Part shown: in pieces, positions 44,542 through 49,131 of the stretch
How positions within the stretch are numbered: the first letter of the stretch is position 1
How the letters are laid out: every line of letters begins with the position of its first letter
From: a virus
Taxonomy: Duplodnaviria; Heunggongvirae; Uroviricota; Caudoviricetes
Length of the DNA: 63,064 bases
Direction: 5' to 3' (one strand)
Virus record (IMG/VR): IMGVR_UViG_3300027807_000001
Coordinates: 147,285-210,348 of that record
Position numbers and translations under genes: made by a program
The notes under the pieces: generated by a model
Told to the model about the DNA's origin: nothing
Database searches by the model: none
The model's input: only the letters and a program-made list of their open reading frames with translations

Positions 44542-46878
44542 TTAGGTCTCCAGAGAGAAGACTACTGAGATGTAACGTAATCCATAGACCGGAGCAATTT
44601 CAAATGAAATGTCAATCTGCCTAGGATCCAAGGAGTTAATAGTCGCCTGTACATTCCGATAATCAGTTATGATATTCAATGAGACTAAGTTATTCAAAAG
44701 AACTTGAATAGTAGCAGTAATCATACTCGTGGTGTTCGAAAGAATCTTAACACCAATGAATATAGAGTTGAGTAGCGTACGAGTCGTAGATGCTGTAAAG
44801 TCTACGATTTCCGTGACAGTGTACTCCTGGTTATCTATTGTTGATCGATCAGTCGTTGTATCTTCTGTAACGAGAACAATATTGTTCTGAAGCTCAATAA
44901 CCGTTACGCCGCCGTTGCGTAAAGTCAACTTATTAGTGCGCGTAATAGGCCCTGTTCCGACGTTCGTAAACGGCGTGAGCTGTTGTCGCAGAAGAGGGGT
45001 TGCCACGTCATTATTACCATTGATACGCACACCTGCCACTGCAGCCGCTAAATAAGACCCATCTAAGTTTGCGGTATTTCCTCCCAGGGTCATCTGACAC
45101 TGAGGAGGCCACAATAGAAGGAATCTCCTCCCTTCGCCACTTGCATCAATGGACGCCGCTTGTGCGATCGCCGAAGTCATAGTTGCAGATGTGGGATCTA
45201 ATCCCATAATAGCTGTACGCTCATTCATCTCAAGGGGCGCACTGCAGTTAACGACGTTAGAGACAATAGAAGGGTATAACATTGGGTCAGGCGTTAAGCA
45301 CACGACAATATTAACGCCGCTAACAGTTGCCAATTTATTAAGAGCGTTTTGGAATCCCGCCAATGGAGCCCCGTCATGGGGGCTTACTTGAACAACAACA
45401 ATTCCCCCGGTATTAGCGCTATTAGTGAACACAATCTGCGACCCAAGAGAAATAGTGCTTGTAGACCCGTCGCTGTTTGTCGTTAAAGTACCGTTAGTAT
45501 TGGCTGTTGGTACAGGACCATATATCGACGTGATACTTGTCAGATCCGTAAAAAGCTGTGGACCATAATCATCCAAAGTAGAAGTGGTTACCTTCGGAGT
45601 TCCATAGCTAAATGAATACTGAACACCTGCGGAAGGCTCATATGGACCATATATTAATACGCCCGGAGTAAAACCAATCGCAGCATTCGCAGTACCTGAG
45701 CCAAGCTGAAGAGAGGCATTATTGGTAGAAACTGTGGCTACCTGTATATAATTCTGGGATCCTTCAACCAAAACGCTCGCTTTAAGGTTACCCACAACAT
45801 TAAGAACAGCATTCATCTGTTCCACAATACCTACGCCCCCACTCAATGTTGTAGATGCGTTTGTAGTGCCTGAATAGTCTGGAGACACCCCATACAATGA
45901 CCCAAGGGTCAGAGAAGTATTACTGGCTATCGACGCGATAACATACGAAACACCTGCTTGGGCTCCAAACTGTATCAACTGCCCTACGCTTAAGGCAGTT
46001 GTAAATGAAGTACCCGTACCTGTAACTGCGGCAGAGCCGTTTGTGACAGAAACAGTTCCTGTGATAGCAGTGTACTCGGTAGGCTCTACGTTAGTTCCGG
46101 TAAAAACTACTGTTTGTGCATTCGATTGCCCGTTGGCATAGAGAGGAAGAGTCAGTCCATTAAGGTTATTACCAGTAGGCATCGCAGTTGCGCCCACATC
46201 TACTCCACCCGTAAAAGTAGCAGCGCCGGAGGGGCTCCAGCTAACATTTCCTCCGACAGTTTCTGTACCGGTATTAGCAACACCAAGTTTAAGCTCAGTA
46301 GCAGCAGTTCCTCCTGTTACTTGGACAGATCCAATAGGTGTTGTTCCGGAGGTTAACGTGTACGTTCCGCTATAGCCTGTACCGCTAAAAGTAGCAGTAA
46401 AGTTAAGATAGGCAGACTGGTTAGTAGAGGTATTAGCAGTCAGGGCGCGCACCTTAGCTTGAATGTCTGCTGCGACAGCTGCTCCAGAAGCATCTGTTCC
46501 CAACGTGATTGTCTGTACTCCATCGTTATTAATATTAAGGGAAAGAGTCTGAGAGGAAGATGGCGCATTAGTAGTTGCCCCAGATACGCTAGTAGGCAGA
46601 GAAAGAATGTAGTCTTCATTTAGAGTATAGCTAACATTATTTTGATCGGTAATAGTGCTAGGCAGTGACAGCGCAGAGGGCGAGAGAGTATCAAGACCAT
46701 TAACAGTAGACCCACGCGTCAGGGTCGTCGAAACAGTCTTATAAGTCAAACCAGTACCTATAAGGCCAACAACGCGGATTCCTCCAGGAATAGAGGGAAT
46801 ATTTGTAGAAGGCACAAATTCAACGACTGTGCCAGAAAGTGCCCCCTCAGCTGCTAAGGACGGTGAATTATCTGCCAT
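44542..46878 (-). CDS. Contractile tail sheath protein with inserted domains
   Basis: VVGLIG.G, ER.AI.G, YLAAAVAG, L...GV.VI, terminal DPRQIDISFEIAPVYGLRYI. Confidence 0.9.
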   Translation of the reverse strand: MADNSPSLAAEGALSGTVVEFVPSTNIPSIPGGIRVVGLIGTGLTYKTVSTTLTRGSTVNGLDTLSPSALSLPSTITDQNNVSYTLNEDYILSLPTSVSGATTNAPSSSQTLSLNINNDGVQTITLGTDASGAAVAADIQAKVRALTANTSTNQSAYLNFTATFSGTGYSGTYTLTSGTTPIGSVQVTGGTAATELKLGVANTGTETVGGNVSWSPSGAATFTGGVDVGATAMPTGNNLNGLTLPLYANGQSNAQTVVFTGTNVEPTEYTAITGTVSVTNGSAAVTGTGTSFTTALSVGQLIQFGAQAGVSYVIASIASNTSLTLGSLYGVSPDYSGTTNASTTLSGGVGIVEQMNAVLNVVGNLKASVLVEGSQNYIQVATVSTNNASLQLGSGTANAAIGFTPGVLIYGPYEPSAGVQYSFSYGTPKVTTSTLDDYGPQLFTDLTSITSIYGPVPTANTNGTLTTNSDGSTSTISLGSQIVFTNSANTGGIVVVQVSPHDGAPLAGFQNALNKLATVSGVNIVVCLTPDPMLYPSIVSNVVNCSAPLEMNERTAIMGLDPTSATMTSAIAQAASIDASGEGRRFLLLWPPQCQMTLGGNTANLDGSYLAAAVAGVRINGNNDVATPLLRQQLTPFTNVGTGPITRTNKLTLRNGGVTVIELQNNIVLVTEDTTTDRSTIDNQEYTVTEIVDFTASTTRTLLNSIFIGVKILSNTTSMITATIQVLLNNLVSLNIITDYRNVQATINSLDPRQIDISFEIAPVYGLRYISVVFSLET

Positions 46879-46903: not shown

Positions 46904-47746
46904 TTATAAATTGAACGATTGGTTAATTCCGCCCGGGGTAGTAATTCTGCCTGAAACACCTGTCAATGAAGAATTCAGAGGAGTAATATCTTCATCAAGC
47001 CACTCTGCATACAGGTGCATCATAACTCCCGAAGTGTAGTACCAACGGTCATTTTCAAATTTACGTCTATCAGCAAGGATCGAAGTACGAAGGATACCTA
47101 TACCGTTATTAGCTAAGTCATCCGTTATGATCTTGAACTTTTCGTACAGACGATCTACTAGCTGATCGCGCGTTATCACATCCAGCGCAGTCGCCTCTAT
47201 CGTTACATTGATATCCATAGGAGCGCCCCTGCGCTCGCTCTGGTTACCATTTTTATCTGTAAACTCTTCAAAAAAATCTTCTTGTATAAATCGATGCTCT
47301 TCACCGCTGGCAGTCATTACGTCAATCGTAGGCAAAGAATAATAATCTTGGGGCGTCGCATCATTAATTGTAATTGCAGTACAATCAAAATTTACAGATA
47401 CGTCTGTATTGAAACTTAAAGTCGCTGCCGCATTGGTTGCGCCGAGATAATTCGTCGTCAATTTAAGCTGAGTGTCACTAGCAATATATTGAACGTAATA
47501 GGTGTTAGTGTCTCCGCTAATTTGCACCATAGCACCGGTATTAAGCGACTTAGTAAAAGTAGTTCCAACTCCCTCGACTACAGGCGTATTTGCAACAACA
47601 CTAACTGTTCCTGGAATTGATTGGTATGCAGCATTTTGCACGTAAGTGTACAGTGGATCATACGAAAACTGTCGGCGAATATTTAAAACAATTGCATCCC
47701 TTACACGCTTGATAATAATTGGGCCAAGCCAAGAATATTCAGCCAT
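46904..47746 (-). CDS. Tail completion/terminator-like protein with inserted module
   Basis: LPTI.V, I...A.D...RDQLVD; immediately upstream of sheath. Confidence 0.6.
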   Translation of the reverse strand: MAEYSWLGPIIIKRVRDAIVLNIRRQFSYDPLYTYVQNAAYQSIPGTVSVVANTPVVEGVGTTFTKSLNTGAMVQISGDTNTYYVQYIASDTQLKLTTNYLGATNAAATLSFNTDVSVNFDCTAITINDATPQDYYSLPTIDVMTASGEEHRFIQEDFFEEFTDKNGNQSERRGAPMDINVTIEATALDVITRDQLVDRLYEKFKIITDDLANNGIGILRTSILADRRKFENDRWYYTSGVMMHLYAEWLDEDITPLNSSLTGVSGRITTPGGINQSFNL

Positions 47747-47750
47747 GTGT

Positions 47751-48345
47751 TTATATTAGAGGATTTGTATCTGATGGGATAGGCGGAACAATTGGACAAG
47801 TAAGCCCAGTCTGATTATCCGCTAATCCTGCAATCGGGATCTGATAAATAATATTATTTCGTTCAATCTCAGTAGTATTAAAAGTAAAATGAAGGATATG
47901 ATGGCGCCACTTGGACACATCTACTTCTGTAATCCATAACCTCTGGTTATTCCGGCGAACGATAAAATCTTTATTATTCAGCTGGGGCTCCCAAAGAGCC
48001 CAGTTGCCTACCGCGTTAAACGTGCGGCGCAGGCCCTGATCATACTGCGTGATAACCTGAGGAACAGTGCCACTCTTTAAACTTACAAAAATATCAAAAG
48101 GTCCGTAATATCCACCAACGAAAGGAGTGCCGTACCCAATAGTATCGTTCGGTACTTCTCTAACAGTTCGTCTGATCGGATCATAATTGGGAGATAACGT
48201 GCCTGAATATAAGCGTTTATAAAGAAGAACTCTTTCGCCGCCGACTGCTAGCATCCAGCGCAGCTTTTCTCTCATGTCAAAGGAACCTCGTTACGAGGGG
48301 GTCAACCCTATCTTCAACTGAGGGCAAGATTTGTAGGCAGCTCAT
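47751..48345 (-). CDS. Neck/head-closure protein; main ORF 47751..48275, possibly extended from ATG 48345 by a +1 frameshift
   Basis: GGERVLLYKR, YGT.FVGGYYGP, W...EP.L...DFIV; 22-codon upstream ORF ending CTT TGA C. Confidence 0.6.
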
Positions 48346-48346
48346 T

Positions 48347-48565
48347 TTAGAGAACCTCTCGGATCTTAACCAAGCAATCTACTAAATTTTTCTTAAGCAG
48401 TAAACTCGCGTTCGTACGAACTCCCAATGACCGCACAGCTACACTTTTCTTCTTTAGAAGCTGTTGAGCTGTTCTTCTTCCAATACCAAGAGCTACGGCA
48501 ACCTTCTGCACGGTTCCAAGTTCATCGTATAACTTCTGTAATTCTTCTTTAGTTAAGTGAGACAT
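48347..48565 (-). CDS. Small HTH protein
   Basis: LTKEELQKLY..LGT...VA.ALGIGRRT; TAATG-coupled. Confidence 0.6.
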   Translation of the reverse strand: MSHLTKEELQKLYDELGTVQKVAVALGIGRRTAQQLLKKKSVAVRSLGVRTNASLLLKKNLVDCLVKIREVL

Positions 48566-49131
48566 TATAGTTTAAGGTAGTTAATAACTATGTTACTATT
48601 TGCCGCAGGAGGGGCTGTGAACGTAAAAGACATTTGATCGGGATTTTCATTAAAATCTGTAGTGGGTAGCCTGTTAACACCATCGATAAAAACCTGCAGA
48701 GACCCGAATCTAAATAAATTAGCGGTTGTGAAAACGGTATTAGTGCCATTTACTAATCCACCCGGCACCTCACTAACAACAAGCGCATCGTACTGCAAGG
48801 TCGTCGCTCTAAATGGTTTTTCTTCAAAGTCATCGAAGGTTTGATCAGATACTGCGTTTGATTGCTGGATGTTGCTTTTATATCCAGTATTATCAACTGC
48901 TAGGACTTTATAGAAGAAAATAACTCCGAAAGTATAAGGAACTTTATCAATAAATTGGTAAGTAGGAGAAGCAACCTGTCCTACTTTTTCAAATCCCTGG
49001 TACTCCTGTGTCGATCTCCAAATCTCATAAACAGTAACTACTTCCTCAGGAGAATTAAGATCCCATTCAATCAGGAAGCGTCTTCCCGCTAGTAGATTTT
49101 CAACAGAGACATTAGAAACAACGCTTGGCAT
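48565..49131 (-). CDS. Fn3/Ig-like virion protein
   Basis: IEW...YEIWRS...FID....FYKV.AVD..G Fn3 pattern plus G.VNG.NTVFT...VFIDG module. Confidence 0.65.
   Translation of the reverse strand: MPSVVSNVSVENLLAGRRFLIEWDLNSPEEVVTVYEIWRSTQEYQGFEKVGQVASPTYQFIDKVPYTFGVIFFYKVLAVDNTGYKSNIQQSNAVSDQTFDDFEEKPFRATTLQYDALVVSEVPGGLVNGTNTVFTTANLFRFGSLQVFIDGVNRLPTTDFNENPDQMSFTFTAPPAANSNIVINYLKL

Follow-up and report, generated by a model that had tools for sequence, protein, structure and literature searches.

A phage neck stopper gene split by one extra base at a prfB-like CTT TGA C site, possibly corrected by +1 frameshifting

The bacterial gene prfB carries a +1 frameshift cassette made up of an SD-like stretch of purines placed 6 nt ahead of the stop codon (3 nt ahead of CTT), a slippery CTTT, the stop TGA and a following C (PMC12421855; PMC5009743). 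The consensus SD of prfB is AGGGGG(U), and the shift takes place about 25 codons into the gene, with CUU UGA C at approximately codon 26 (PMC12421855; PMC5009743). The cassette is kept in 64-87% of bacteria (PMC12421855; PMC5009743), and the PRFect paper states that every CUU-stop +1 site listed in RECODE comes from a prfB gene (PMC10274946). Single-nucleotide insertions can be offset by corrective, or compensatory, +1 frameshifting, as described for bird and turtle mitochondrial genes (Atkins et al. 2016, PMC5009743). Among phages, the Listeria phages PSA, A118 and A500 shift +1 at CCC_UGA within tsh, the gene for their major tail protein (PMC5009743).

The split gene described here lies in a window of 63,064 nt, the last 63 kb of a 210,348-bp IMG/VR virus record that represents a complete genome with direct terminal repeats on one contig; all features of the locus are on the minus strand (Table 1). 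With bacterial prfB it shares the slippery CUU_U, the in-frame UGA and the C thereafter, an SD-like run whose end lies 3 nt upstream of CUU with an identical register (last G, U, 2 nt, CUU), and a short ORF1 (22 codons, compared with 25 in prfB) with the protein body in the +1 frame. It differs in that the product is a virion neck protein, with no feedback loop through that product, that the SD is shorter, that an ATG comes directly after the stop, and that the site, unlike the widely kept prfB cassette, occurs in no relative.

By analogy, the closest literature concept is corrective frameshifting at an indel (PMC5009743). This conserved gene differs from its intact orthologues by a single-base indel, and a shift-prone site at the indel would restore the colinear product (P0196). 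As in the mitochondrial cases, a one-base insertion would stand in a conserved, needed gene, the non-shifted product would be useless, and the normal protein would be regained through a +1 shift at the insertion or beside it. The mitochondrial shifts, however, are long-lived and common to lineages, whereas this one is in a phage, was seen once and would use a bacterial SD-stimulated stop-codon site. The Listeria tsh shift likewise lies beside a UGA stop in a phage structural gene, but it occurs at a Pro codon at the 3' end, in several phages, and adds a C-terminal extension that leaves two useful products; here the shift would come at codon 22 and would be needed for any normal product.

Table 1. 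Coordinates of the split stopper locus, given as positions of the window.
Feature	Start	End	Strand	Basis or remark
Whole neck stopper gene, read with one +1 shift (197 residues, P0196)	47751	48345	-	TGAC translated as a single step; colinear with homologues
RBS GAGAGGT of the ancestral ATG 48345	48354	48360	-	Sequence; GAGG end 9 nt before ATG
ORF1, 22 codons + TGA	48277	48345	-	Covers the conserved arm at the N-terminus plus the beginning of stopper helix 1
Internal SD-like GAGG(U)	48285	48289	-	Sequence; GAGG at 48289-48286, 3 nt (TTC) before CTT
Shift site CTT TGA C	48276	48282	-	Holds the extra base relative to CTT/CTC GAC of relatives
Small hairpin CCUCG-UAA-CGAGG	48286	48298	-	Predicted to mask GAGG in free mRNA; -5.8 kcal/mol
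ORF2 from ATG 48275, 174 aa	47751	48275	-	ORF list; neck stopper fold

A first-pass annotation, made from the sequence of the window, had described this split accurately in all details. The ATG at 48345-48343 has its own RBS, as had been stated, and follows by one base the stop (TAA, 48349-48347) of an upstream 72-aa gene; relatives use the same start Met, each with its own RBS (e.g., GGAGG in the related locus L004). ORF1 encodes MSCLQILPSVEDRVDPLVTRFL and its 3' end reads ACG AGG TTC CTT (48282-48280) TGA (48279-48277) C (48276) ATG (48275-48273). The +1 frame continues as had been proposed, remaining open for 175 codons from GAC (48278-48276) to a stop at 47753-47751, and is closed after 4 codons upstream of GAC. 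The ATG of ORF2 encodes what is in the stopper family a conserved internal Met24, and the internal GAGG, 10 nt away, could on sequence also be usable as its RBS. The small hairpin over this GAGG, also noted at first, was recovered (z -2.7 on 19 nt) and is missing in L006, L007 and L002, three relatives closer than L004.

At the same position, L004 (3045-3063) has a hairpin of different sequence, CGCUU-GUA-GAGCG (-4.3 kcal/mol). A larger stimulatory RNA structure was rejected, with the 96-nt context folding no better than shuffles (z -0.27). The 72-aa gene directly before the stopper gene (48347-48565, minus strand), within the neck/tail block, gave weak helix-turn-helix matches (HTH_23, E 1e-3, below the cut-off), and a 69-aa gene takes its place in L004.

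The stopper of a phage neck is the head-completion protein located between the portal/adaptor and the tail terminator. An AlphaFold (AF2) model was built for P0002, an 83%-identical homologue, with 34 sequences (mean pLDDT 82), and predicts that residues 1-16 form a loosely ordered arm, residues 17-35 a helix and residues 37-160 a beta-barrel. Foldseek searches with this model returned phage neck components only (best E 2e-5). VIA-align gave Z 12.4 (rmsd 2.9, 141 residues) against a neck chain of phage 812 (8q01_S), Z 10.1 against an entry titled as the stopper protein of phage 812, Z 10.4 against a phage T1 stopper-tail terminator entry, and Z 8-9 against chains from the entries for the lambda neck and the T4 neck (gp13/gp14); all 26 chains with Z>=8 were neck components. 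The neck protein proposed by the first-pass annotation is borne out by these matches as a probable stopper/head-completion protein.

On the minus strand, the stopper gene is followed by a 280-aa gene and then by a 778-aa tail sheath gene (phrog_2839, E 3e-31). The stopper assignment is made through predicted fold and gene position and not through a curated sequence family, and searches of Pfam and PHROGs gave no match to the 174-aa protein at E<=0.01. With known neck stopper/head-completion proteins (those of phage 812 and T1, SPP1 gp16, lambda gpFII and T4 gp14), the window protein shares the predicted N-terminal helix and beta-barrel fold and the gene position, two genes upstream of the tail sheath. 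It differs from them in that its family, which no Pfam or PHROG family matches, has a conserved N-terminal arm (MSHLQILP) and a Pro-rich tail. In the alignments, the small (minimal) stoppers begin, with their own residue 1, at model residues ~19-22. The frameshift site, at residues 22/23, thus falls inside helix 1 of the predicted stopper fold.

Using the 174-aa protein as query, we found 45 relatives with 43-83% identity, nearly all of them 15-27 residues longer. In the alignment consensus, an N-terminal extension (MSHLQILPxVxxRxDPLVERFL) is followed directly by DMREKLRW, which is what ORF1 and ORF2 give when joined at L22/D23. The N-termini of all 45 proteins were checked, and an HLQILP-type extension was present in frame in 44; the exception, P0045, was called without the HLQILP motif and starts 4 residues before the FL(D/S) junction motif. 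At the DNA level, we compared the contigs of two homologues and related loci from IMG/VR and JGI metagenomes, and the gene was in one frame in all 18 locus entries (14 distinct contigs). The junction in these relatives reads ..TT(T/C) CT(T/C) GA(C/T) ATG.. or synonymous variants, and the DNA alignment places a 1-nt gap in all of them at CTT(T)GAC, such that the window has one extra base. The +1 product of 197 residues has zero altered residues relative to the family pattern. The two ORFs thus belong together as one gene, as first proposed, with the L22/D23 junction reproducing the ..RFLDMREK.. of homologues and the fusion in frame elsewhere that had been suggested as a check. Gene callers cut the stopper of the window to 174 residues and lose the conserved N-terminus.

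The other proposed check, whether GAGG-N3-CTTTGAC is conserved in homologous neck genes, gave a negative result: the motif was in none of the 18 relatives' locus entries and is found in the window only. The Arg codon that contributes to the GAGG is AGA, CGT or CGC in the loci of 14 close relatives and AGG in none. The 22-residue N-terminus is conserved as strongly as the core in the alignment of homologues, and His3, which is nearly invariant in the family, is Cys in ORF1 of the window. By blastn, the locus had no counterpart among 50,697 phage records, and exact matching of the junction to IMG/VR, minus the records near the window's own, was likewise negative both for the sequence with the extra base and for that lacking it. 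Judged from these alignments, the split appears to be a one-lineage single-base insertion and not a conserved regulatory device, because all relatives examined are unsplit and lack the motif.

The prfB-like elements, the equal spacing and the similar position that had been reported for this site all hold: GAGG, 3 nt and CTT TGA C are in register at codon 23, with the slippery CTT and in-frame TGA in the frame of ATG 48345. The C after the stop provides a weak UGA-C context, and TGA stops are followed by C in 8 of 48 cases in the genome. In pairing with the 3' end of 16S rRNA, GAGGU-UC-CUU takes the same register as GGGGU-AU-CUU of Escherichia coli prfB, with an anti-SD duplex of 5 pairs compared with 7 in E. 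coli. CTTTGAC occurs 42 times in the 210-kb genome, and only at the stopper site does it combine an in-frame ORF that has a start codon with an SD in register and a long +1 ORF whose frame is closed upstream. One other occurrence with a +1 frame closed upstream (genome position 73706, minus strand) was rejected; it lacked both an SD in register and an RBS-bearing ORF1 start, and its +1 frame does not read like coding sequence. Across ~171 kb of coding sequence, a CTT codon is followed in frame by GAC 16 times. The chance that a random one-base insertion creates a complete cassette is on the order of 1e-6, since none of the 16 pairs has an SD-like 4-mer in register, although the site was chosen for its prfB resemblance from a very large scan and the argument from coincidence is weaker than these per-genome numbers.

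The genome provides context for how the site would be decoded. SD motifs precede 39% of crude starts, with a background of 12%, and the host evidently uses SD sequences; TGA makes up 17% of stops, and the host is, on this genome's sequence, one that reads TGA as stop. AGG accounts for 12% of Arg codons. Among 47 GAGG-bearing starts, 12 have a spacing of 8-10 nt and the mode is 5-7 nt. The phage carries 36 tRNA genes (aragorn; G000:C1:19907-116053, outside the window), none of them a UGA suppressor. No release factor (RF-1/RF-2 domain) was found in the phage genome, and the stopper gene has a single match there and no second copy. The phage tRNAs include tRNA-Leu(AAG), tRNA-Asp(GTC) and tRNA-Arg(CCT), which read CUU, GAC and AGG, respectively, at the shift site. 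Aragorn also predicted a tmRNA gene, whose tag peptide of 23 residues ends in ..ARELAVA.

We infer that a genuine one-base insertion has occurred and that its effect is corrected by +1 ribosomal frameshifting, which is the most likely reading of this one genome and one we hold at about even confidence. The insertion would have fallen between Leu22 and Asp23, turning ..TTC CTT GAC ATG.. into ..TTC CTT TGA C ATG... Ribosomes would start at the ancestral ATG 48345, read 22 codons and pause when tRNA-Leu sits on CUU in the P site and the weak stop UGA-C has entered the A site, while GAGG(U) 3 nt upstream would pair with the anti-SD of the translating ribosome. A fraction would then re-pair tRNA-Leu on UUU (+1) and read GAC, yielding the normal 197-residue protein; the remaining ribosomes would terminate, leaving a 22-residue peptide, and some may restart at the adjacent ATG. 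Partial efficiency could suffice, as few stopper copies would be needed per virion if the C6 symmetry of the matched solved necks applies. The site may have become a prfB-type cassette by chance or may have been tuned into one; with one genome only and no conservation, a functional signal and a lucky context are inseparable.

Several observations argue for this reading. If the insertion is real, the phage must still make a working stopper, because a complete, abundant jumbo-phage genome carries the split in a core neck gene, and a +1 shift would be the simplest route to the conserved protein because the elements of the prfB cassette match in the same register. Frameshifting is further favoured because the insertion and the stop coincide, so that a shift at CUU alters no residue, because the SD depends on an AGG codon absent from the 14 close relatives' loci, and because the N-terminus is conserved and ORF1 retains its ATG and RBS. 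Against it, GAGG(U) is a weaker SD than AGGGGG, and a conserved ATG follows this GAGG at 10 nt, within the genome's spacing range, such that restart could give a truncated protein. The efficiency of prfB cassettes is also host-dependent, e.g., ~6% in M. smegmatis (PMC12421855). By analogy with prfB, shift efficiency at the UGA site would depend on RF2 activity; nothing shows a regulatory use of this.

Should the insertion be real and corrected in this way, the locus would indicate that the prfB signal is a portable module outside release-factor genes in nature, and would capture a rare natural case of a leaky indel becoming a programmed frameshift that is obligatory. A cassette of the prfB type close to the start of a neck gene, where it corrects an insertion, would be new relative to known phage +1 shifts. 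A stopper gene lends itself readily to assays by plaque formation and virion mass spectrometry.

It is also possible, though we consider it unlikely, that the extra T is a sequencing or assembly error, that the real gene is in frame and that the likeness to prfB is coincidental. The difference is a single-base change in the length of a short T run, the extra base is unique among all relatives, and ORF1 shows no decay beyond one odd residue; moreover, the site was picked from a very large scan, in which rare coincidences are expected. However, the exact 174-aa call, which requires the break, was found on 4 contigs of three size classes in JGI/IMG and Logan assemblies, which were made separately, and a comparison of 151 nt showed no difference between the JGI contig and the window. 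Homopolymer errors are not typical of runs as short as 3 bases, and an error would have had to strike about the sole position in ~171 kb of coding sequence at which it completes a cassette. If it is an error after all, the case would illustrate that frameshifts seen in single genomes need reads ahead of interpretation.

A comparably improbable alternative accepts the insertion and takes the 174-residue form as the working protein, with translation starting at ATG 48275 through GAGG as an RBS (translational coupling). The start would be made by ribosomes terminated at UGA or by free 30S subunits, and ORF1 would be a relic leader peptide. The geometry fits in that the ATG lies 1 nt past the stop with GAGG 10 nt upstream, a spacing within the 8-10 nt range of some GAGG-bearing starts, but this is beyond the 5-7 nt mode. 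The hairpin over the GAGG would tie the start to upstream translation, which is typical of coupling. The predicted beta-barrel core is wholly downstream of the shift site, yet a protein starting at Met24 would be without the conserved arm and the first third of helix 17-35, and the 23 missing residues hold the motifs (H, Q-I-L-P, F-L) conserved in at least 90% of sequences along with the start of the first helix. P0045 is the single homologue of 45 called without the HLQILP motif. The change of His3 to Cys hints, at the sequence level, at relaxed constraint on ORF1, favouring restart or a mix of routes, and frameshifting and restart at ATG 48275 could operate together. Restart would explain the GAGG but not CUU-UGA-C in the exact prfB register with zero altered residues, and corrective frameshifting remains our preferred reading.

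A stronger form of the frameshifting reading, which we think quite doubtful, is that a phage structural gene has gained a prfB-type signal de novo, such that virions depend on the +1 shift and neck assembly is tied to host RF2. The route to such a signal could have been the insertion of a T in CTT-GAC, before or after a change of AGA to AGG supplied the SD. If this were true, the site would stand as the first CUU-UGA-C cassette outside genes related to translation termination, and would offer a snapshot of programmed frameshifts born from corrected indels.

The first-pass annotation went further, proposing an evolved, RF2-sensing morphogenesis switch in which host RF2 activity or UGA termination efficiency sets the amount of stopper or the ratio of full-length to short forms. 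We regard this as very unlikely, and the proposal finds no support beyond the RF2 sensitivity inherent to UGA-dependent +1 sites (PMC12421855, PMC5009743). The cassette is complete, and both the SD-creating AGG codon and the hairpin are lineage-specific, but no relative is split, which indicates that the family works without such control; the genome has no second cassette, the phage lacks a release-factor gene, which leaves the autoregulatory loop of RF2 without a counterpart, and nothing points to a role for the 22-residue peptide or a short isoform.

That the gene is dead, through a defective variant genome or with the stopper function supplied by another gene, is hardly credible: the gene is formally frameshifted in a single genome, but a dead phage is not suggested because the genome is complete with direct terminal repeats on one contig, both halves are intact with RBS and start, there is no second stopper copy, and the stopper is a core part of the solved phage necks that fill the match list. 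UGA recoding or readthrough was rejected, as no phage tRNA reads UGA, TGA ends 17% of ORFs and the 0 frame past the TGA closes after 19 codons unlike homologues. Transcriptional slippage was also rejected, a run of three T being too short for it.

The neighbourhood of the stopper gene yielded further observations. Three distant relatives (P0052, P0057 and P0060; 298-327 aa) carry the stopper domain at the C-terminus, and their N-terminal part resembles, by eye, the 188-aa protein of the window encoded at 48565-49131 (minus strand; ..W-D-x-N/S-P-E..Y-x-I/V-Y/W-R-S). The stopper gene and this upstream neighbour may be fused in some phages. Additionally, the 280-aa protein (46904-47746, minus strand) and the tail sheath (44542-46878, minus strand) each contain a segment of ~65 residues matching tail-fibre PHROGs (phrog_1980, E 3e-11 and 1e-8), which suggests from sequence matches a shared inserted decoration domain in the two proteins.
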